Below, in pieces: positions 4,063 to 15,370 of a stretch of DNA of 64,000 nucleotides. Each line of letters opens with the position of its first letter. Within the stretch, counting starts at the first letter, position 1. The notes under the pieces were generated by a model. The model was not told where the DNA came from and searched no databases. It worked only from the letters and a program-made list of their open reading frames with translations. Source of the DNA: a virus (lineage: Duplodnaviria > Caudoviricetes); the IMG/VR virus record IMGVR_UViG_3300021387_000796, positions 64,001 to 128,000 of that record; one strand, 5' to 3'. The position numbers and the translations under genes were made by a program.

Positions 4063-4569
4063 ATGAAAGTAACTGCATGGACGAATGAAGAATATGCTAG
4101 GAAACATTACATAGACCCTTTTGACGAACGTTTAAATTTAATGAATCCTAATAAGAAAATGATAATGCCAAACGAATTAAAAACTTTGGCAAAAGAAAAT
4201 AATTTATCATGTGATGAAATGTTTGAAAAATGGAAAACTGAAACTGAATATGATAAAATTCCTATGTGGTTAGATGAAGATAAAGTAAAAGAATATAATA
4301 GTCTTTTATCAGAAATGGAAACTTGCATAATAGAACATTGTAAAGAAAAAGGAATCAGATTTTCTGCCGATTATCATCAATATGGTGATTATGGTGTACC
4401 AATTATCGATTATAAATATATGTATTATACTTTTGCTAGAACGTGGGGTTGGATTATGGCAATGGCTGACAATGATAAATCAGATAATGGATATTTGAAA
4501 TACTATCTTCATGGAAACGAACATCCTATCAAATATCCAAACGAAGTAAATGGAGAAATTTGTATATGA
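4063..4569 (+). CDS. hypothetical protein
   Basis: ORF with GAGG RBS. Confidence 0.65.
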   Translation: MKVTAWTNEEYARKHYIDPFDERLNLMNPNKKMIMPNELKTLAKENNLSCDEMFEKWKTETEYDKIPMWLDEDKVKEYNSLLSEMETCIIEHCKEKGIRFSADYHQYGDYGVPIIDYKYMYYTFARTWGWIMAMADNDKSDNGYLKYYLHGNEHPIKYPNEVNGEICI

Positions 4570-4732
4570 GTGATTTCTATATATTTCTTGAAGAAGATAA
4601 AGGTCTAAATAAAAATCAAATAGAAAGTTTATCAGATGAAGAATTAAATAAATATTATAAAGAATATGAAAAAAATATAGAATCTGAAAGAAAAGACTTG
4701 ATAGATGAAGAATAAATTGCAATAATGTAATT

Positions 4733-6938: not shown

Positions 6939-7601
6939 ATGGTTGTTGATTATGATTTATTTGCTGAACTTGCTAAAGAATACGAATATCAATATAAAGT
7001 TGAAGATTTATATGGTGATATGATTGCTAATAAACTTTCAGAAGAATTTGGAATTTATATTGGATTCGATAATAAATATTTTACTTGTAGTTCTATCGGA
7101 TTTAAAGTTTATTTCAGAGATGTAAAAGACTTTAAACAGTTGCATGATATGATTGCAGATAAAATTGGTAATGGTGCGGATGACGCTAAACTGAATGATA
7201 AATTCCATTACTTTTTTAGTAATGTTTCGGTAGAATCAAAAATTGGTGAATTTCATAATTACGACCGTTATTCATTTAATTCCATGTCGTTCTTTGATTT
7301 GCTTTGGTATTTGAAAACAGACGAATTTATTCGTGACGGTTCAATTGGTCACAAACTTATGGATGTTGCACAAGATTACGCAGACAAATATCCAACAGAT
7401 AATGCAACATATTTCTATCCAAGAAGTGGATTGCAGTATCAGGTTCGTTATGGTGAATGGATTGATATGACAACCGTTGACCCTAAATTCAGTGGTTGGC
7501 AAATCAAGTTCTTCCAAAACGGTAAAGTACAGATGAAAGGTTTGTCTGTAGAAGATTGGGATAAAATTGTTCACCTTGATGAAATTTGTTCAAGAAAATA
7601 A
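6939..7601 (+). CDS. hypothetical protein
   Basis: GGAG RBS; TAACTAT motif at 6903. Confidence 0.7.
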   Translation: MVVDYDLFAELAKEYEYQYKVEDLYGDMIANKLSEEFGIYIGFDNKYFTCSSIGFKVYFRDVKDFKQLHDMIADKIGNGADDAKLNDKFHYFFSNVSVESKIGEFHNYDRYSFNSMSFFDLLWYLKTDEFIRDGSIGHKLMDVAQDYADKYPTDNATYFYPRSGLQYQVRYGEWIDMTTVDPKFSGWQIKFFQNGKVQMKGLSVEDWDKIVHLDEICSRK

Positions 7602-7726
7602 ATAGATGTGTGTTATTTTTCATATCGAAGTTGTATGTCATTTCGATATGAAAATGCTCGGATTTAAGTTCCAAGCATTTTTAATCCCCTAAGTTAATTC
7701 CTAGAGATATTTATTTTCTTTAGGGA

Positions 7727-8230
7727 TTAAATATTTATTTTCTTCAATTTACCGTTCATTCTATGATATACGTTTTGATTTGAACTACCTCGTAATTTCA
7801 AAGTTGTATCTCTTTTAGATTCATCATATAAGCCGTCAATAAAATAATCAATTTTACTCAATATATTTTTTATTCTTAAATCTTTCGATTTCTTTAATTC
7901 TTTGTATATAAATCCACTCCATAAATAAATTATAGTATTGGGAGATTTGTTTTTAATAAAATCAATTAAATCGGATACAATTTGTCTATTTTGTTCTAAT
8001 AAAGGTTCTCCACCCAAAATAGATAATCCCCTATTTATCTCATTTTTATGAAGTAATTCGAGAATAATTTCTTTATAATCTGAAGGTAATTCTTGTCCAC
8101 CATTTAAATCCCAAGTTTGAGGATTATGACAATGAGGACAATGAAACAAACAACCTTGACACCAAAACGACACATTGATTCCGCTGATGGAATCAACTAT
8201 GTCGTTTTCTATAATTCCTGCAAAACGCAT
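7727..8230 (-). CDS. nrdG: anaerobic ribonucleotide reductase activase (radical SAM)
   Basis: QGCLFHCPHCHNPQTW, LGGEP, IDGLY, LRGSSNQ; ATG at 8230 overlaps the nrdD stop (TAATG). Confidence 0.95.
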   Translation of the reverse strand: MRFAGIIENDIVDSISGINVSFWCQGCLFHCPHCHNPQTWDLNGGQELPSDYKEIILELLHKNEINRGLSILGGEPLLEQNRQIVSDLIDFIKNKSPNTIIYLWSGFIYKELKKSKDLRIKNILSKIDYFIDGLYDESKRDTTLKLRGSSNQNVYHRMNGKLKKINI

Positions 8231-8763
8231 TACTTTTTCACCCAATCGTTTAATTTATTTACATGAACGAATCTATCTTTAACTTCCATTTGCTTGCCTT
8301 TGTTAAAATGTTTGTAGTCTGTTGAAAGATAACCTGTTACACGAGCAAGATGCTCTATTTCGTTTTTATCTGCTCCACATTTAGGGCAAGGTTCTTCAAA
8401 TCCAATATTTTCATCACAACCGCATTTTTTGCAATGAGATAAAGGAAGATTCAATGCAAAATATGGTACATCTTTTTCTTTGGCATACAAAACAATATCT
8501 TCAAGAGCCTTCAAGTTGTTAGATGCGTTATCTCCAATTTCAACATATGTGATACAACCTGCTGATGAATAATTTGTCAATTGAGATTCAATATCAATTT
8601 TTTCAAAAGGAGAAACTTCCTTCCATACAGGAACATGAATAGAATTTGTGAAATATCCTCTAGGTTGAAGTTTTCCATTCTCATCTCTGTATGCAGTTAC
8701 ATTTTCAATGAGACCGTATTTTTTGACAAACTTATCGAATGAATTTTTTGACAATCCTTCTGC
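8230..8763 (-). CDS. nrdD: class III RNR C-terminal fragment (NrdD-b), exon 2
   Basis: AEGLS..., YFTNSIHVPV, Zn ribbon CKKCG..CPKCG, glycyl-radical loop ARVTGYL. Confidence 0.92.
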   Translation of the reverse strand, partial: AEGLSKNSFDKFVKKYGLIENVTAYRDENGKLQPRGYFTNSIHVPVWKEVSPFEKIDIESQLTNYSSAGCITYVEIGDNASNNLKALEDIVLYAKEKDVPYFALNLPLSHCKKCGCDENIGFEEPCPKCGADKNEIEHLARVTGYLSTDYKHFNKGKQMEVKDRFVHVNKLNDWVKK

Positions 8764-9055
8764 CGAAATTCTTTATATTTTCATATAAAGTCAGACTATA
8801 TTTTCATCTTTTATTTCTTTTACCAAAATAAAAGAGCCTCTCATTTCCAACATAAGTTGTACTCTACTCATTTATTCGCCTAAGTTTTTCTCTTAGGTTA
8901 TACTTTCGATAGTCGTTAGAGCCATCCATTTTTAGGACTTCCTACGGGGTTAGCCTGCTTATCAAGTTTAGCCTTTCTTATCAGATTATTACTCTTCGCC
9001 CGTTTAGAGAGGGATTTTCATTTACTGTCACCAGTAAAGCACCCACTTAAAATTT
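8764..9055 (-). ncRNA. ORF-less group I intron (292 nt) in nrdD
   Basis: 5' exon CACCU pairs with intron GGGUG (P1 with U.G); P3 CCUCUC/GAGAGG; P7 GACUAU/AUAGUC; terminal G at 8764; removal restores YYTP|AEG in frame. Confidence 0.92.
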
Positions 9056-9154
9056 AGGTGTATAATAAACTCCAAAATTCAATCGATATGATTTCTTTTC
9101 CTTTAATTCCTCAAGTGCTTTTTCATACACCTCTTTTAATTTTTTTTCATCCAT
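9056..9154 (-). CDS. nrdD: class III RNR C-terminal fragment (NrdD-b), exon 1 (not in ORF track)
   Basis: AGGAGG RBS then ATG 9154: MDEKKLKEVYEKALEELKEKKSYRLNFGVYYTP; LNFGVYYTP is conserved NrdD sequence; spliced product 210 aa. Confidence 0.88.
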
Positions 9155-10007
9155 TTAATATCCTCCTGAAATTTTCTTTTATATTTTCTTTATTGTTATA
9201 CCAATCACTTTCTTTAACTCGAAAAAGATTTATACCTTTTTCTTTACAGATTTTATTTTTTAAATTATCTCTTCTTTTCATGTCAGGAAGAGAGTGCCAA
9301 TAATCCCCATCATATTCGATTGCGATTTTCAAATCGGGAATATAAATATCTAATTCTAATGGGAAAATTTGTTCTCTATCAGAATGAATAGAATTTTCTT
9401 TTAATTGTTTTATGAATAAATAAAGTTCATCCTCACCTTTCGATGTTTTATAATTTTTATTTACCAAAAATCCACAAGTCACATCATATTTTTCTATCAA
9501 AGTTTGTTTTCTTTTATTTATAACATCTATCAAAAACGCAGGATTTTCAACATTATATTTATCCAATAATGATTCTTTTATTTTATTCTTTCCGATTTCA
9601 GAACTAAAAATATTAGTAGAGCCATATTTTTCTAAACAAGTATTTTTCATCTTTTGTTGAATTTCCTCGCATTTGGCTGGATTATCAACTCCATATTTTT
9701 CTAAACAAGTTTGTTTTATTTTATTTCTTAAATCCTTATCATTTTGGGCGCATTTAGAACTACAATATTTTGCAAATTTTCGATGTTTTATTGTATTAAT
9801 TTCTTTTCCACAAATTTTACATTTTGGTTTTTCTGTCAAATCATTCAATAAACAAATTCCCATTTCTTTTAAAGAATAATGTTGAGGAAAATATTTTTTT
9901 AATTCCAAAAGCAAATTTAAATTTTTCTTATTATTTAATATCTTATGCCAACATCTAGGATTATCACAAATAATCTTTAAAATTTTATTTTTTATTTCGA
10001 CATCCAT
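9147..10007 (-). CDS. free-standing homing-type endonuclease inserted in nrdD
   Basis: Cys motif CKICG..YCSSKC, KQTCLEKYGVDNP-type repeats, C-terminal Vsr/PD-(D/E)XK-like SKGE..ELDIYIP..AIEYDGDYWH; GGGAG RBS favours ATG 10007. Confidence 0.8.
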   Translation of the reverse strand: MDVEIKNKILKIICDNPRCWHKILNNKKNLNLLLELKKYFPQHYSLKEMGICLLNDLTEKPKCKICGKEINTIKHRKFAKYCSSKCAQNDKDLRNKIKQTCLEKYGVDNPAKCEEIQQKMKNTCLEKYGSTNIFSSEIGKNKIKESLLDKYNVENPAFLIDVINKRKQTLIEKYDVTCGFLVNKNYKTSKGEDELYLFIKQLKENSIHSDREQIFPLELDIYIPDLKIAIEYDGDYWHSLPDMKRRDNLKNKICKEKGINLFRVKESDWYNNKENIKENFRRILNG

Positions 10008-10017
10008 AATCACTCCC

Positions 10018-12345
10018 TTAAAAACGATTTTGTTTTTTACAAAATTCGAAAATTTCTTCTTTGGAAAATTCAACATTTTCTTTTGTTAAATTTTCTATGA
10101 TTTTATCATAGATTTCTTCATTTGTGAATTTTGGACAATGCCATTCTTTTTTAAATTCAGCACATCTTTGCTTGAATAAAGATTCAATTTTTTTAGCAAG
10201 TTCCATTCCTTTATCAGTGCATTGGTCAGTTCCAATTAAAATCTGCAAAGTTTCAGCAAGACCTATCTGACCGATAGCCAAAGTTCCATGTTTCAATGCT
10301 GAACGAATGCCTTCATTTTCGTTATATCCATAGAATGTTCTGTTTTCATACATAAATGAAGCCGATTTAGGATTTTGAGAACAGATATAATTAAATCGTT
10401 CAATCAATTCATCTTTACAATCAGTTATAGCATCATCAAGATTTTTCATAAACAATTCAATTAATTTATCTTCATTAACTTCGTCTTTCATCTTCTTTTT
10501 TGATTCCATAGCAATTGTAGGCAAAACAATTGTAGCAGGTGCGATGTTTCCACGACCATCTTTGAGATGAGATAATTCTTCCGATTCGGCATTTATATCT
10601 GTACTACTATAAGTACGACAATTATGAGAAACAATTCCGCTTAAATCAAACATATCTGTTTCAGTAGTGAAATCATAAGTATTGCATTTTTCATCAGTTA
10701 CTTTTACTGAAATAATTTTATATCCATATCCGCTGACAGAATCATAAATTACATCACCTACTTTCAAATCAGTAGCAATAATTCTACCACGAGCGGTATG
10801 CAAAGGATGGTCTTCTGTGATATGAAGAATTTGATTTTCACCATTTTTATCAAATATAACTTCGTACAATTTTAATGGTGAAGATTCATCATTAAATTCG
10901 ATATTCAAAATATCAACCCATTTATTCTGACATTTAATCTGACAATTTTTTACTTGTTTATACTTTGTATATCCGATTTTATTAGATTTGTTGTTAATCC
11001 ATTCGATATTGGAAGTATAAGAATCTATTGTCTCAATTGCTTTTTTAATTGAAATGTTATTAAATTCCACACCGTTAATTTTGATTGATACAAATTCATC
11101 ACCACGAACTGCACCCATCGTACTAGGATAAGTTCTTGGGTCATCTTTATTATAACCTTGGTCGTTACTCCAATCACAGTTTACATAATTAGGATAAAGA
11201 CGTTTAGAAGTACACTCAATTGCTAACTTAAACAAATCATAATTAGGGTCATTTTCTTTAGCATTTACGCCATCCATTAATTGAAAAATTTGGCAAGGAA
11301 ATATCGAGGTGGCGTGATTACCAACACCATCAATAGTGCATTTCAAAATTTCTTTGATTAATAAGCGACCTTCTTCTAATGTACAAGTTCCGTAGTTTAT
11401 AGACGAAAACGGCAACTGGTTACCTGACCTGCTCTGCAATGAGTTTAAGTTGTGTAACAATCCTTCCACAGACTGATGAATTTCCTTTTTAATCATTTCA
11501 TAAGCATAATTTTGTACTTTTTTATTTTTATAAATTTTTCTATCTAATATTGAAATTGTTTCCACATTAGATAAAGTAATTGGTTTTTTATTTTTAATAA
11601 ATTTCAATCCTTCATTGTAATGCTTAAAAAATGATTTTCTAATATAAGGAATCATACTCCAATCAATATGCGTTACTGCAACACCACCAAACTGTTGTAA
11701 TGATTGCAATTGAATTGCAACGGCGACAAGTTGCATAGCGGTGGATAAACTATTCGCAGGTCTGATAAATACTTGTCTAGTTTTCATACCATTTTTAAGC
11801 AAATCGTCAATGGGTAGCGACAAGCAATTATGCATCCCTACAAAATATGAATCCAAATCGTGAATATAGATTCTATTATTATTATGATTTTTTGCAAACT
11901 TTGGAGAAATCAAATAATTTAATGCAAGTTCTTTCATTAAAACCGAATCGGCTTCACCTTTTCTTCCACCAAATGAAAATTCGTCTACATTTGCGTTCTG
12001 ATTTACTACATTTGTTGCATTTAATTTTTCAAAGATTTTTTTAGTGATATCAAGATTCTTAAATCTTTCAAGTTCACGACTTTTTCTATAATCGATGTAT
12101 GATTTTGCCACATCTTTATTTTCTTTCTTCAAATATTTTTCTACAAGGTCATGAATATCATCAACTTCAATTTCTTCTTTTCCTTCACTTTCGAGAGAAG
12201 ATTTTACAAAAGAAACTGTATTTTTAAGTTGTTCATCCGTAATTTTATTATCAGTTTTCATATTGTCGGATGCGAGTTTGATGGCATCCACAATTTTTGA
12301 TTCATTAAAATTTACTAATCTGCCGTCTCTTTTTCTTACTTTCAT
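10018..12345 (-). CDS. nrdD: class III RNR N-terminal fragment (NrdD-a) with ATP cone and intein
   Basis: ATP cone VRKRDGR, IYIHDLD, HNCL, QFGG, SRSGNQLPFSSINYG, MG/CRT finger loop, GRGNI. Confidence 0.93.
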   Translation of the reverse strand: MKVRKRDGRLVNFNESKIVDAIKLASDNMKTDNKITDEQLKNTVSFVKSSLESEGKEEIEVDDIHDLVEKYLKKENKDVAKSYIDYRKSRELERFKNLDITKKIFEKLNATNVVNQNANVDEFSFGGRKGEADSVLMKELALNYLISPKFAKNHNNNRIYIHDLDSYFVGMHNCLSLPIDDLLKNGMKTRQVFIRPANSLSTAMQLVAVAIQLQSLQQFGGVAVTHIDWSMIPYIRKSFFKHYNEGLKFIKNKKPITLSNVETISILDRKIYKNKKVQNYAYEMIKKEIHQSVEGLLHNLNSLQSRSGNQLPFSSINYGTCTLEEGRLLIKEILKCTIDGVGNHATSIFPCQIFQLMDGVNAKENDPNYDLFKLAIECTSKRLYPNYVNCDWSNDQGYNKDDPRTYPSTMGAVRGDEFVSIKINGVEFNNISIKKAIETIDSYTSNIEWINNKSNKIGYTKYKQVKNCQIKCQNKWVDILNIEFNDESSPLKLYEVIFDKNGENQILHITEDHPLHTARGRIIATDLKVGDVIYDSVSGYGYKIISVKVTDEKCNTYDFTTETDMFDLSGIVSHNCRTYSSTDINAESEELSHLKDGRGNIAPATIVLPTIAMESKKKMKDEVNEDKLIELFMKNLDDAITDCKDELIERFNYICSQNPKSASFMYENRTFYGYNENEGIRSALKHGTLAIGQIGLAETLQILIGTDQCTDKGMELAKKIESLFKQRCAEFKKEWHCPKFTNEEIYDKIIENLTKENVEFSKEEIFEFCKKQNRF
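10621..11112 (-). mobile_element. 164-aa mini-intein starting with Ala, no endonuclease domain
   Basis: Inserted in STMG|CRT; block B ITEDH, DLKVGD, block F TYDF, C-terminal IVSHN followed by Cys. Confidence 0.88.
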
Positions 12346-12364
12346 ATAGCATTACCTCTTTTAA

Positions 12365-12422
12365 TATATATATTTAGTGTTGAATTAAAGATAGTTACAC
12401 TTTAAGCCACAATATTTAGTGG
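12365..12422. promoter_or_regulatory. tandem NrdR-box-like sites upstream of nrdD
   Basis: CCACAATATTTAGTGG (12407-12422) and half-matching TATATATATTTAGTGT (12365-12380), 42 bp apart. Confidence 0.6.
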
Positions 12423-12511
12423 TTTAAAGTGTAATACATTTGAGAATATTTTTCAATATTTTTTTATAAAATCAGTAAGAATAATTCCATCCCTTTAGAG
12501 CGGTGTGTAGT

Positions 12512-15370
12512 TTACAAATATAATGTATGACTTGTTACTGAAGATTTTTTATTATAATTATCAGCCAATAGTTTTGGAGTAACAAGTCTTGAACTAGTGG
12601 ATGTTCCAGCGGTGATTTCTGCTTGTGTTATCGTAGAATATGTGGTATTAGAATCATAGTTTAACCATATATAATATGTACCATCATAAGTAATTTCGCA
12701 TAACCTATTTGCTCTAAATTCTCCACTGTAAGCATATGTCATTTGTGTATAATTTTTATTATATAAATTAATGTCACCTGTTCCATTTATATTTAAAGAA
12801 ATATTTCCTGATGTTGGAGCGGAACCTGCGGTATCGGTGAATTTAACAATGATTTTACAACCTATTTCAAGTTCAAATGTAGGACAAGTTACTACTTTTG
12901 CATTTGTGGCTCTTGATGTAGAACAAGTTCCATAATATAAAGATGTTTGCTCAACTAAATTTGTTGTTTTTTCAATTAAATCTGTTGTTTTCTCTGACAG
13001 TTCAGTAATTCCTTTAAATGCAGAACCTAAATCATTCAAACTATTAAATGTTGAATATTTTATACCATCACTATTACTACTAACAGTACCAATTACCCAA
13101 ATTCCATTTGCATAATAAGGGGTGGAGTAACCAGCACTAGTTATGTTTGAATCACTCCATGTTTTTCCATCTGTTGAATATTTTACACCATTGCTATAAA
13201 CGCTAGTAATTACCCAAATTCCATTTGCGTAACAAGGCTTTTTGTAACCACCGCTAGTTATGTTTGAATCACTCCATGTTTTTCCATCTGTTGAATATTT
13301 TATACCACCACCACTAGTGCTACCAATTACCCAAATTCCATTTGCGTAATAAGGAGCATTATAACCACCGCTAGTTATGTTTGAATCACTCCATGTTTTT
13401 CCATCTGTTGAATATTTTATACCAGTGCCACCAATTACCCAAATTCCATTTGCGTAACAAGGCTTTTTGTAACCACCGCTAGTTATGTTTGAATCACTCC
13501 ATGTTTTTCCATCTGTTGAATATTTTATACCAGTAGTAGCAGTGCCACTAGCACCATCACTACCTATTACCCAAATTCCATTTGCGTAATAAGGGGTATC
13601 GTAACCATTGATAGTTATGTTTGAATTATACCAAGTTGTTCCATTGGTCGAATATTTTATACCATTAGCAATACCACCAATTACCCAAATTCCATTCGCA
13701 TAATGAGGAGTGTTGTACATAAGACTGCTCATGCTTGAACTAGTCCACCAAGTTTTTCCATCGGTTGAATATCTTATACCTGCACCTGAACCTTCATTGG
13801 TAGTAACACTTATTATCCAAATTCCGTTTGCGTAATAAGGGTCACTATAAGCAAAATAACCTGACAGTGAATTATACCAAGTTTTTCCATCAGTAGAATA
13901 TTTTATACCAGTAATACCACTAGCATTATTGATGATGGCAATTACCCAAATTCCATCCGCATAATAAGGAGCGGTATATTTACCGCTAGTTGTGTTTGAA
14001 TCATGCCAAACCATTCCCAATTCATCATCGGTCAATCCTAGATTGGCTTTTGTGATATTTACATCTCCATGCCTATAGGTCGTTTCCGCTTCACCTTTGA
14101 CACCTGTAACATCCCCACTGCCACTACTAATAAATTCATCGTATTGTGCAACTTTTTCGGAAGTTATTCCACTGTTAATCGCATATAATTGTTCAGAGGT
14201 AAAAGGTTCTTCGTTTACTTGATATTCTGCAATCCAACCGTTTTTCCCATCAGTTTCCCAATCACCTGTATATTTAAATCTCCAAGTTCCACTTAATGTT
14301 TCTAATGTATAATCAGAAGCGTCTTGTACAACCAAATAATCGTTTACTGTTGGAGTTGTGTTACCTGAATAATCTTGAGGATAATCTTCTGAGTTTGAAG
14401 GTACATCTGCCCAATCATCCCAATTTCCTCTAAAATTAGCGGTGTTTGTTTGGACTGTAGAATTTACGAATGATTTATCCGCTAATTGATTCGATGATGA
14501 TGCTTGATTTGGAATTAAATCATCAATCGAATCTATCCTATTTGACAAATTAGTATCAAAAAGATTTCTGTTATAAATTTCATTGTTCAAATTGATTTCA
14601 AATAACTCATCTTGCTCAGTTCTTTCTTGAATTTCAGAATTCAAATTTTCACGCAATAAATCGTCTGCTTCTGTTCTAGTTTGAGTTTCGGTGTTTATTT
14701 TTTCTAATAAAGTATTATCTCCATCGATTCTATTTTGTGTTTCTGTTTCTAAATCATCGATGACAACATCTAATTGATTAAGATTTGTTCCATTAGTGTT
14801 TGTATCAGATGTTTTGGAATGGGTTATTATTCCTTCCCACAAATCGGTTTCTTTATTATGAAGTAATTGGTTGTTGATATTTACATCGTGAGTCTCGTCT
14901 GTGGATGTATTTGCACCTAAAGCAATCCCCCCTTGTTCCGCATTTGAGTTTTTACCAATCGGTATGTTTTCTTCATCTTGAAAGGCTAGTTTTGCTTTTC
15001 CAACATATGAATCTGAATAATCTTCTTGAGTCGATGTATTGATTAATTTGGCATAACCAACATCATTATACAATTGAGAAAGTTTTGTAGGAACATCTAT
15101 ACTTATGTTTTTTTCACTATCAGGATAAAATTTTTGTCCACCATTAATAGATATTGTTTCTACTTTATTTTCTTGAGCATTTACTTCAACAGAATTTAAT
15201 TTGAGTTTGTCCGAATCAGTAAAATCGTTAGAACTTAATCCTTTTCCTTTTTCTTTGAGAACATATTTACTCAACAATATTGATATTTGACCATATCCGT
15301 ACAAATCAACATTTCCTTCTGAATTAGTTTTATCGAATTCTACAGTTTGTATTTCCCAATGATTATTCAT
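12512..15370 (-). CDS. tail fibre / receptor-binding protein with beta-propeller repeats
   Basis: GKGLSSNDFT fibre motif, coiled-coil ETQNRI repeats, eight Y(Y/C)ANGIWV..GIKYSTDGKTW (Asp-box-like) repeats. Confidence 0.7.
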   Translation of the reverse strand: MNNHWEIQTVEFDKTNSEGNVDLYGYGQISILLSKYVLKEKGKGLSSNDFTDSDKLKLNSVEVNAQENKVETISINGGQKFYPDSEKNISIDVPTKLSQLYNDVGYAKLINTSTQEDYSDSYVGKAKLAFQDEENIPIGKNSNAEQGGIALGANTSTDETHDVNINNQLLHNKETDLWEGIITHSKTSDTNTNGTNLNQLDVVIDDLETETQNRIDGDNTLLEKINTETQTRTEADDLLRENLNSEIQERTEQDELFEINLNNEIYNRNLFDTNLSNRIDSIDDLIPNQASSSNQLADKSFVNSTVQTNTANFRGNWDDWADVPSNSEDYPQDYSGNTTPTVNDYLVVQDASDYTLETLSGTWRFKYTGDWETDGKNGWIAEYQVNEEPFTSEQLYAINSGITSEKVAQYDEFISSGSGDVTGVKGEAETTYRHGDVNITKANLGLTDDELGMVWHDSNTTSGKYTAPYYADGIWVIAIINNASGITGIKYSTDGKTWYNSLSGYFAYSDPYYANGIWIISVTTNEGSGAGIRYSTDGKTWWTSSSMSSLMYNTPHYANGIWVIGGIANGIKYSTNGTTWYNSNITINGYDTPYYANGIWVIGSDGASGTATTGIKYSTDGKTWSDSNITSGGYKKPCYANGIWVIGGTGIKYSTDGKTWSDSNITSGGYNAPYYANGIWVIGSTSGGGIKYSTDGKTWSDSNITSGGYKKPCYANGIWVITSVYSNGVKYSTDGKTWSDSNITSAGYSTPYYANGIWVIGTVSSNSDGIKYSTFNSLNDLGSAFKGITELSEKTTDLIEKTTNLVEQTSLYYGTCSTSRATNAKVVTCPTFELEIGCKIIVKFTDTAGSAPTSGNISLNINGTGDINLYNKNYTQMTYAYSGEFRANRLCEITYDGTYYIWLNYDSNTTYSTITQAEITAGTSTSSRLVTPKLLADNYNKKSSVTSHTLYL
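13051..14010 (-). repeat. eight tandem ~40-aa propeller repeats, several nearly identical at DNA level
   Basis: TTATGTTTGAATCACTCCATGTTTTTCCATCTGTTGAATATTTTA recurs near 13141, 13258, 13374 and 13483. Confidence 0.9.

Follow-up and report, generated by a model that had tools for sequence, protein, structure and literature searches.

The stretch analysed here, hereafter called the window, comprises bases 64001-128000 (64,000 nucleotides) of the 218-kb IMG/VR phage record IMGVR_UViG_3300021387_000796. This ruminant-gut phage DNA has a G+C content of about 29%, and metagenomes of the sheep, goat, and bovine gut, obtained in several studies, contain near-identical sequences. This work concerns its nrdD locus, encoding a class III (glycyl-radical) ribonucleotide reductase (RNR), in which all features lie on the minus strand in the order nrdD-a, a homing endonuclease gene (HEG), nrdD-b, and nrdG. 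Analysis of the locus revealed that nrdD has been invaded three times: by a mini-intein, by a cassette made up of a tail-coding segment, the HEG, and a head-coding segment, and by a group I intron devoid of an open reading frame (ORF). As read from the coding frames, the endonuclease gene splits nrdD into two polypeptides, each of them bearing a non-NrdD extension. An assembly artefact was ruled out, as every junction was bridged by contigs of an independent sheep-gut run; in addition, the JGI contig L092, with 99.1% identity to the window, showed an unchanged layout.

The first fragment, nrdD-a (10018..12345), is an ORF of 775 aa plus stop that includes, in this order, an ATP-cone, the N-terminal part of NrdD, the intein, the middle part of NrdD, and the tail. 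It matched the Pfam families ATP-cone (1.4e-19) and NRDD (1.6e-82), and aligned with residues 9-413 and 436-574 of the Prevotella copri NrdD structure PDB 8p23 (residues 3-408 and 597-736 of the query). Compared with solved NrdDs and with relatives, its homology stops at ..RCAEFKKEWH, with H736 (codon 10140-10138) as the last residue, and is followed by a C-terminal tail of 39 aa (CPKFTNEE..KKQNRF, 10021..10137) and a TAA stop codon (10020-10018). Next comes the free-standing HEG (9147..10007), preceded by the Shine-Dalgarno (SD) sequence GGGAG at 10017-10013. Its 286-aa product contains DUF7487 repeats (61.2 bits for a Pfam cut-off of 27) and a Vsr-like, "Hef-like" PD-(D/E)xK nuclease domain of the MTES_1575/DUF2726 type (MTES_1575, 41.2 bits for a cut-off of 38.2), and the gene shows DNA similarity to others that carry a Hef-like homing endonuclease annotation in Campylobacter and AR9/PBS1 phages. 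Orthologues with 46-50% identity were found at the same nrdD site in L098, L099, and L100, and no close relative of this endonuclease was detected in IMG/VR outside its own genome.

An AGGAGG ribosome-binding site (9162..9167) within the 3' end of the HEG lies 7 nt ahead of the ATG of nrdD-b at 9154, which overlaps the HEG stop codon (ATGgATGA). The ORF starting there contains just 35 codons, corresponding to an N-terminal head of 24 aa (MDEKKLKEVYEKALEELKEKKSYR, that is MDEKK..KKSYR; 9083..9154), the peptide LNFGVYYTP, and the residues KF before a stop at 9047. LNFGVYYTP is encoded by a 27-nt mini-exon (9056..9082) that ends exon 1 of nrdD-b, and the same peptide is unbroken in the relative L010 and in the Thomasclavelia phage TR-TP1. 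Exon 2 (8230..8763; 177 aa plus stop) starts with AEGL.. and carries the Zn-ribbon cysteines and the RVTGY glycyl-radical motif; it matched Pfam NRDD positions 415-562 and Gly_radical, and aligned with PDB 8p23 and 1h78. Its stop codon overlaps the ATG (TAATG) of the activase gene nrdG (7727..8230; Pfam Fer4_12, 1.1e-35, and Radical_SAM). The whole set would be transcribed as a single operon a-HEG-b-nrdG, with translation of b coupled to that of the HEG through the ATG overlapping the HEG stop. An earlier note on this DNA, made by a model from the letters and their reading frames, had placed the end of NrdD homology near RCAEFKKEW followed by a non-NrdD tail of about 40 residues, an endonuclease gene after a, and an AGGAGG-led ATG at 9154 adding an extra peptide before LNFGVYYTP, and in all three respects our analysis agrees with it.

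The 292-nt insert that separates both exons of nrdD-b (8764..9055) was assigned with high confidence to the group I introns from an Rfam match, its predicted elements, and, as the stronger evidence, comparison with other loci. When the region 8740-9080 was searched alone, it gave a full-length match to the Rfam family RF00028 Intron_gpI (29.6 bits, E 6.7e-6), below the gathering cut-off of 50. No Rfam match at all, the intron included, was obtained over 7600-12600 at E<=1; as the intron was missed in this 5-kb search, Rfam negatives on long stretches are weak. The predicted elements include a 5' splice site after U9056, a P1 helix formed by the exon-end CACCU and the GGGUG located 11 nt into the insert (internal guide sequence, 9044-9040), P3 (9013-9007/8842-8837), P7 (GACUA/UAGUC, within 8916-8909/8799-8792), a GAAA-capped P9 hairpin (8790-8771), and a terminal G (8764). 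Removal of the insert joins YYTP to AEGLSK.., identical to the unbroken reading YYTPAEGLSK.. of L010, whereas in the DNA NrdD resumes at 8763 (AEGLSKN..) in a frame other than that of the 9154 ORF. Since the intron lies between YYTP and AEGL, fragment b needs RNA splicing, and self-splicing of the intron would link exon 1 of nrdD-b, 33 codons long, with exon 2.

The CCT↓GCN position is also occupied by an insert ending in G in the E. coli phage TH18 and in L028, L049, L080, L100, and L102; that of TH18 is 290 nt long, and those of L028, L049, and L080 are of 1.0-1.1 kb and include an HNH endonuclease ORF. The window intron shows 85, 82, and 78% nucleotide identity to those of L100, L102, and L099, respectively, and has three blocks in common with the HNH-containing intron of L028, with blocks shared with the TH18 intron as well. 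A pairing of 10 bp is also possible between the head codons AGGUGUAUGA (9123-9132) and the 5' exon end UUAUACACCU (9056-9065), with -12.7 kcal/mol and no equally low value among 500 shuffles (0/500), and it would compete with the intron P1; its absence in L098, L099, L100, and L102 argues against a conserved feature, and it is probably due to chance.

The third element, a mini-intein of 164 aa (10621..11112), is located between ..PSTMG and CRTYSS.. of NrdD-a, starting with Ala (MG↓AVRGDE..) and ending with ..VSHN↓ immediately before the +1 Cys (codon 10618..10620). This Cys of the CRT motif, aligned with the MGCRT/MGCRS of relatives, is also the thiyl-radical cysteine, whose catalytic role is established for NrdD. 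The intein is missing, with MG↓CRT contiguous, in most relatives (gap 0) and in the allele P0123, and is shared with L010 and L015, the three of them having Ala as residue 1 and the ending ..VSHN↓CRT. Sequence searches against PDB and NCBIfam gave no match, and Pfam PT-HINT scored 24 bits, under its cut-off, so that fold comparison was needed: in the AlphaFold2 model (predicted local distance difference test, pLDDT, 73), all 33 PDB matches found with Foldseek at E<=1e-3 (33/33) were inteins or intein-like Hint domains, with template modelling (TM) scores up to 0.68. The His-Asn C-terminus and the Cys +1 nucleophile of inteins are present, but the N-terminal Cys/Ser of class 1 is replaced by Ala, which points to a class 2-like (KlbA-type) route; an Asp at the expected block F position, as judged by eye, speaks against the class 3 WCT motif. 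Placed directly before the thiyl Cys, the mini-intein would have to excise itself from NrdD-a.

The MG↓CR(T/S) site is an insertion hot spot. Besides the Ala1 mini-inteins of the window, L010, and L015, group I introns occupy the MG↓CR site in phages TR-TP1 (with an HNH endonuclease) and TH18, and inserts of 180-1250 nt were found there in around two dozen further IMG/VR relatives. In the split NrdD-a of L095 (1982-5008), the Cys site has an in-frame insert of about 300 aa with a Cys start and a ..MHN↓CRT end; the protein has a weak Pfam GIY-YIG match, and the insert holds a GIY-YIG-like stretch. If so, this candidate would be unusual as an intein with a GIY-YIG endonuclease domain.

Several statements of the earlier note are modified by these two elements. 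NrdD homology does resume at LNFGVYYTP as it had stated, but the ORF ends at 9047 and the remainder follows the 292-nt intron in another frame. Its claim that no intron core flanks the insertion agrees with the lack of a group I match in 9040-10180, but is wrong for the downstream side, where a group I intron starts 27 nt past the head. The thiyl Cys (MG-CRT) was rightly placed in fragment a, with MG and CRT set apart by the 164-aa intein, and the TPAE loop, Zn ribbon, and glycyl radical are all in b, although TP and AE belong to different exons. Finally, the split that it had called non-splicing is so, by sequence, for the HEG insert, but b requires intron splicing and a requires intein splicing.

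In order to define what was inserted, the junction was compared with that of intact genes. In 75 of 79 IMG/VR relatives, exactly 27 nt (LNFGVYYTP) link the a-type (..EFKxEYK) to the b-type homology, with neither tail nor head; hence, neither extension is NrdD sequence. In L010, the closest relative, the reading is uninterrupted (..EFKNEYK LNFGVYYTP AEGL..), and L033 contains an in-frame insertion of 9 aa at the split point, so this loop tolerates extra residues. Intact homologues including both tails as one contiguous insertion, which the earlier note had named as evidence that would tell against a split, were absent among those inspected; P0315, considered as an intact NrdD with an internal tail, turned out to be a normal NrdD on inspection. 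The cassette would consist of the tail-coding segment with its stop codon, the PD-(D/E)xK HEG, and the SD sequence, ATG, and head-coding segment, inserted in the loop between the ..EFKKEWH helix and the LNFGVYYTP strand, and the split would be permanent, the cassette being removed at neither the RNA nor the protein level.

Heads and tails were found to belong to families, in line with the search for the same tails elsewhere that the earlier note had proposed. A search with exon 2 retrieved short NrdD C-terminal proteins, four of which have a non-NrdD head ending in ..YR (..CK in P0001) right before LNFGVY. Compared with shuffles, the window head gave z scores of 10.2 for P0023, 8.7 for P0010, 7.8 for P0077, and 3.5 for P0001, and similar heads were found in L098-L102; in total, homologous heads are present on eight other split NrdD-b starts, with head identities of about 50% for b cores of 54-75%. 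For the tails, a word-indexed search with the tail region yielded identical copies only, and a profile search without a word index was needed. The profile (A2, last helix plus tail), built from the window, L095, and L096 and run against 1.84 billion cluster representatives, recruited around 14 clusters (50% identity) of NrdD-a-like proteins ending in a homologous tail of about 40 aa directly after ..E(Y/W)(H/R), some of the split genes flanking an orthologous HEG. These tails, whose lengths range from 39 to 67 aa, follow the pattern T.E(E/Q)I...M(I/L).K......R.L(S/T).EEIK.I..(Y/F)(C/V), into which the window tail fits. The helical tail on a that the earlier note had proposed is supported by the AlphaFold2 model of the intein-less allele P0123, with an identical tail, in which a helix (550-563), a loop, and a second helix (570-579) were predicted with pLDDT 74-80.

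No origin within NrdD could be assigned to either extension. The head as a diverged duplicate of the preceding NrdD helix was not supported by pairwise comparison (p ~0.07), and with a hidden Markov model of 109 natural helices only P0023 reached p ~0.04, the others being not significant; the tail as a duplicate of NrdD sequence downstream of the split was not significant either. By eye, no loop complementary to the GGGAG ribosome-binding site was found in the tail region.

The composition of the cassette varies among loci. The window, L092, and the P0123 contig have a tail of 39 aa, a HEG of 286 aa, and a head of 24 aa, with the 292-nt intron in the window and L092. The corresponding sizes are 41, 288, and 24 aa in L098 (HEG 46% identical; intron present, the contig ending inside it), 40, 287, and 32 aa in L099 (47%; intron present), and 43, 285, and 22 aa in L100/L101 (50%; intron of 293 nt). 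In the P0010 contig, the gene calls indicate the same arrangement, with an orthologous HEG of 285 aa and a head of 22 aa, but no intron. Three loci are devoid of a HEG: L102, with a 40-aa tail, a 25-aa head, and an intron of 286 nt, and L095 (tail 67 aa, head 25 aa) and L096 (tail 42 aa, head 24 aa), both without intron. In L095, the stop codon of a overlaps the ATG of b by 8 nt, and in L096, a spacer of 29 nt separates both genes, tail and head being kept. All four endonuclease-bearing loci for which DNA was available (window, L098, L099, L100/L101) have a homologous intron at CCT↓GCN, and in every such locus AGGAG lies in the last HEG codons and the ATG of b overlaps the HEG stop; an AGGAG at a distance of 7-9 nt from an ATG that overlaps the HEG stop recurs in L010, L098, L099, and L100.

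The distribution of split forms was analysed on a tree of NrdD cores (46 rows, tails removed). The nine split forms require seven state changes, at least five of them forced by branches with support of 95 or more in the Shimodaira-Hasegawa-like approximate likelihood ratio test (SH-aLRT >=95), and their clustering is no greater than that of shuffled labels. As tails and heads are homologous, independent invention is excluded, and horizontal transfer of the cassette fits as the economical reading of the scattered split forms. Comparison between strains revealed a further signal: over 2.7 kb (11118..8423), not a single difference separates the window from L092, in contrast to the flanks, with 11/1233 in the N-terminal part of a and 17/503 in nrdG. 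This identical tract spans the intein, the C-terminal part of a, the tail, the endonuclease, the head, the intron, and the 5' part of exon 2. Over most of a, the allele P0123, devoid of the intein, has 95% identity, with 0 mismatches in the last ~110 residues, tail included, and on its contig a is followed by the same endonuclease and by a 35-aa ORF. Furthermore, alleles without HEG and intron (..KKE YKL NFG..) were detected in the same sheep-gut run (X3). The HEG shows, then, a presence/absence polymorphism with co-conversion of its flanks, and these observations fit endonuclease-driven gene conversion of the cassette with hitch-hiking of the intron and, sometimes, of the intein.

A split enzyme likely works, to judge from what is conserved in its sequence. 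All frames are open and the catalytic motifs (CRT, NC, Zn cysteines, RVTGY) are intact; the sequence keeps 283 of 300 highly conserved columns, and L010 shares 14 of the 17 losses, leaving three lineage-unique losses for a median of 2.5 in intact relatives. In addition, no RNR other than nrdD/nrdG was detected in the genome, whose completeness is estimated at 92%. The active enzyme would be a non-covalent assembly of a and b, with the Cys loop provided by a and the Gly-radical loop and Zn ribbon by b. Since tail and head are attached at neighbouring residues of the fold, they must lie close together, and, by analogy with the NrdA of phage Aeh1, the helix-loop-helix tail and the amphipathic head would stabilise the assembly. 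The family-wide conservation of heads and tails increases the odds that they matter. Direct docking of tail and head is one option, and their partners may be each other, the core, or the second protomer. A complex prediction with residues 712-775 of a and the 35-aa ORF of b exon 1 scored 0.10 for a mark of 0.34, and is evidence neither way.

Taken together, we consider that a split cassette, with the assembly and horizontal spread that it implies, is the best explanation of this nrdD as a whole, with a probability of about three in four. Gene conversion driven by the endonuclease would carry the cassette, tail and head included, horizontally from one gut-phage nrdD to another, in most cases together with the adjoining intron, and the split would persist once the endonuclease gene is lost. 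More tentatively, and with rather less than even odds, tail and head could be the built-in repair kit of a mobile HEG cassette, composed of a stop codon and a helix-loop-helix tail upstream and of a ribosome-binding site, a start codon, and an amphipathic head downstream. With such a kit, the endonuclease gene could settle in an essential glycyl-radical enzyme without splicing and move horizontally, dragging along the ORF-less intron 27 nt downstream, which may shield the cassette's own genome from the endonuclease, and the resulting two-subunit class III RNR could outlive the endonuclease.

Several points weigh against this explanation. The NrdD core tree came from a quick search and a biased sample. 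The cassette tract is identical between strains in the window's lineage, so selection is not measurable there and constraint is inferred from distant homologues only. The endonuclease and the intron are separable, as shown by the P0010 contig (endonuclease without intron) and L102 (intron without endonuclease), and their joint homing is something that we infer. Two RNA runs sharing words with the region (X19 and X20; 7-8% of the sampled words) do not cover 9046-10032 and include no joint at either junction, being uninformative on splicing. To these must be added that a "docking pair" may be the wrong picture, as the Aeh1 tails are not required for formation of the a/b heterodimer (PMC3045599), and two properties of the tail. 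It is far less conserved than the head, the window tail being marginally similar to that of L096 (z 2.6) and not significantly to that of L095. The window tail (10021-10137) also resembles the junction between a GCPKC zinc knuckle and the nuclease in other large endonuclease genes of the same genome (G000:C1:198083-197982 and 15136-15240), with a score of 63 for shuffles of 26+-5 (0/5000; 3/3000 without the CPK residues). The tails of L095 and L096 lack this likeness to the CPKC junction, which may be coincidental or may have been left behind by an older endonuclease.

These last points lead to the alternative that tail and head are neutral leftovers, foreign sequences fused in frame and tolerated without any role, with the halves assembling through the native NrdD interface. 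A tail that varies in length from locus to locus and looks like a fragment of another endonuclease gene is what a relic would show, and the Aeh1 heterodimers form without theirs. Nevertheless, the heads are conserved at a level near that of the cores, the tail motif survives in about 14 clusters that include genes having lost the endonuclease, and tail deletions abolish activity in Aeh1 (PMC3045599), so we regard this alternative as unlikely, though the strongest of those considered. A decaying pseudogene, with the insertion having inactivated nrdD and the phage depending on the host RNR, would account for the accumulation of three parasitic elements in one gene as a mark of relaxed selection and for the recent age of the cassette tract in the window's lineage. 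It is hard to reconcile with open frames and intact catalytic motifs, with a number of lineage-unique losses close to that of intact relatives, with the retention of nrdG overlapping the b stop, with the lack of any other RNR found in the genome, and with the persistence of the same split in many diverged phages, with and without the endonuclease, and we consider it improbable.

Removal of the HEG region from the RNA as a second group I intron or twintron, yielding one polypeptide and reducing tail and head to read-through or chance ORFs, has in its favour that an in-frame join EWH↓NFGVYY can be drawn in which U precedes the 5' site and G the 3' site, that the tail region folds better than shuffles (z -3.5), and that Rfam is insensitive to ORF-containing phage introns, giving no match even for a structured insert in L010. 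However, no group I match was obtained in 9040-10180 at a narrow setting that does detect the adjoining intron, and the tail region has 21% GC, compared with 31-32% in the nrdD exons, and stems made of A/U only, without G+C-rich ones. Heads and tails are conserved as in-frame peptides across distant homologues, a perfect SD with an ATG overlapping the endonuclease stop recurs in five loci, and L095 and L096 retain tail and head with no room for an intron, all of which makes RNA removal very improbable in favour of a split at the protein level. Even less credit is given to a split intein made up of tail and head, through which protein trans-splicing would join a and b in the manner of the "fractured genes" (Dassa et al. 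2009). The arrangement of gene half, free-standing endonuclease gene, and gene half does match these (PMC2677866), and Cys is the first residue of the window tail, but this position is variable among homologues (C, Y, A, T, Q, K) and the predicted tail has two helices instead of beta structure. Tail and head add up to 63 aa, about half a HINT domain, and the head ends in ..SYR, not in ..HN, with Leu as +1 residue in all homologues, which for practical purposes excludes a split intein, in agreement with the earlier note, where no split-intein termini had been seen.

To our knowledge, gene fragmentation by a HEG rescued by tails has so far a single biochemical case, the class Ia NrdA of phage Aeh1. 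The earlier note had cited Aeh1 nrdA split by mobE as precedent, and the comparison is apt. In both systems a gene for an RNR catalytic subunit is split by a free-standing HEG as an unspliced insert, the downstream half overlaps the HEG (PMC3045599; PMC2988022), AT-rich non-homologous tails are present at the C- and N-termini, and the active-site residues are divided between two polypeptides. The Aeh1 tails were shown experimentally to be essential for activity; dispensable for a/b pairing, they are needed for the dimerisation of heterodimers (PMC3045599). The differences are the enzyme class (class Ia in Aeh1, and class III with NrdD/NrdG here), the endonuclease (HNH MobE, compared with PD-(D/E)xK/DUF7487), and the extensions themselves: those of Aeh1 have no database relatives, and the authors predicted that such tails would be too variable for similarity detection (PMC3045599), whereas the tails and heads described here form conserved families, some of whose members have no HEG.

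Other systems share parts of this organisation. T4 gene 39/60 is split by mobA (PMC2988022). In T4 mobE and the nrdB intron (PMC2790892), as here, a free-standing HEG adjoins an intron without a working endonuclease in an RNR gene, and both are co-inherited, a kind of endonuclease-intron pair for which several papers use the term "collaborative homing". In the window, by contrast, the HEG interrupts the coding sequence itself, ending 99 nt before the intron, and so splits the protein, and one homologous contig has the endonuclease without the intron. The T4 nrdD (sunY) intron with I-TevII represents the same host gene, a phage group I intron, and a HEG-rich nrdD-nrdG locus, but it is inserted at ..AYE↓VNTL.. 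and not at TP↓AE, encodes a GIY-YIG endonuclease of its own, and leaves T4 NrdD as a single polypeptide. The Hef of the T4-like phage U5 (PMC2988022) is also a free-standing endonuclease associated with RNR genes, although it sits between nrdA and nrdB and splits no gene; the window HEG was compared only with genes annotated as Hef-like. With fractured genes our locus shares the half-HEG-half layout, but having no split-intein termini, its reassembly must be non-covalent. A recent report concerns the "Jug" jumbo gut phages (Sci Adv 2026, PMC12880540), where 95 of 104 genomes have an nrdD broken up by group I introns, endonuclease genes, and intein domains, and one gap between fragments showed no evidence of mRNA splicing. 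These belong to another phage group, with genomes of 360-402 kb and Bacteroides/Phocaeicola hosts, and the passages searched describe neither tails or heads nor a defined split site or mobile cassette.

In the literature searched, four aspects appear to be new: a defined endonuclease split of a class III glycyl-radical RNR, the existence of homologous tail and head families, their scattered tree distribution implying a portable cassette, and the recurrent linkage of this cassette to an ORF-less intron 27 nt downstream. The same solution would be found in another enzyme class, in which one chain provides the Cys loop and the other the Gly loop. The homologous families and the natural variants, with endonuclease, intron, and intein each present or absent, make three questions accessible to deletion, covariation, and structure prediction: how a split enzyme is reassembled, whether the tails are part of the mobile element, and whether an ORF-less intron and a free-standing endonuclease act together. 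As regards annotation, gene callers report such genes as unrelated fragments, and the first exon of nrdD-b, of 33-43 codons, is usually missed.

Additional rearrangements were detected in related loci. In L010 (2903-4692), the closest relative, nrdD is split in a variable loop some 450 codons further upstream by a DUF7487 endonuclease of its own (26-31% identical), with the ATG of the next fragment overlapping the endonuclease stop; this split is unrelated to that of the window but has the same design. About 150 nt downstream of that endonuclease, L010 also contains a structured ORF-less insert of 262 nt at SRSG↓NQLPF (fold z -4.1, with a P1-like GGGU/GCCC), for which Rfam gave no group I match over 4400-4720. 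Further DUF7487 endonuclease genes are located just downstream of nrdD or nrdD-b and before nrdG or the next gene in L012 (6699-7595) and L095 (5672-6841), the nrdD-nrdG locus generally attracting genes of this type. The NrdD-b-like protein P0028 (ENA, 255 aa) has at its N-terminus part of a GIY-YIG motif (..GIYYIKN..KYYIGQS..) that continues in frame into ..EKYH↓LNFGVYYTP, pointing to rearrangement of this site by a second endonuclease family.

Regarding the surroundings, a scan of 7600-12700 for promoters gave its best sigma-70-like match at 10100-10128 (minus strand; 10/12, extended -10 TG), inside the tail-coding region and about 95 nt upstream of the endonuclease start, the total of promoter-like sites over this region being not above shuffle expectation. 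Upstream of nrdD, the window contains an ORF of 952 aa (12512-15370, minus strand) with a coiled N-terminal part and about nine repeats of a ..GIKYSTDGKTW..YANGIWVI.. motif, which probably encodes a tail-fibre or receptor-binding protein.

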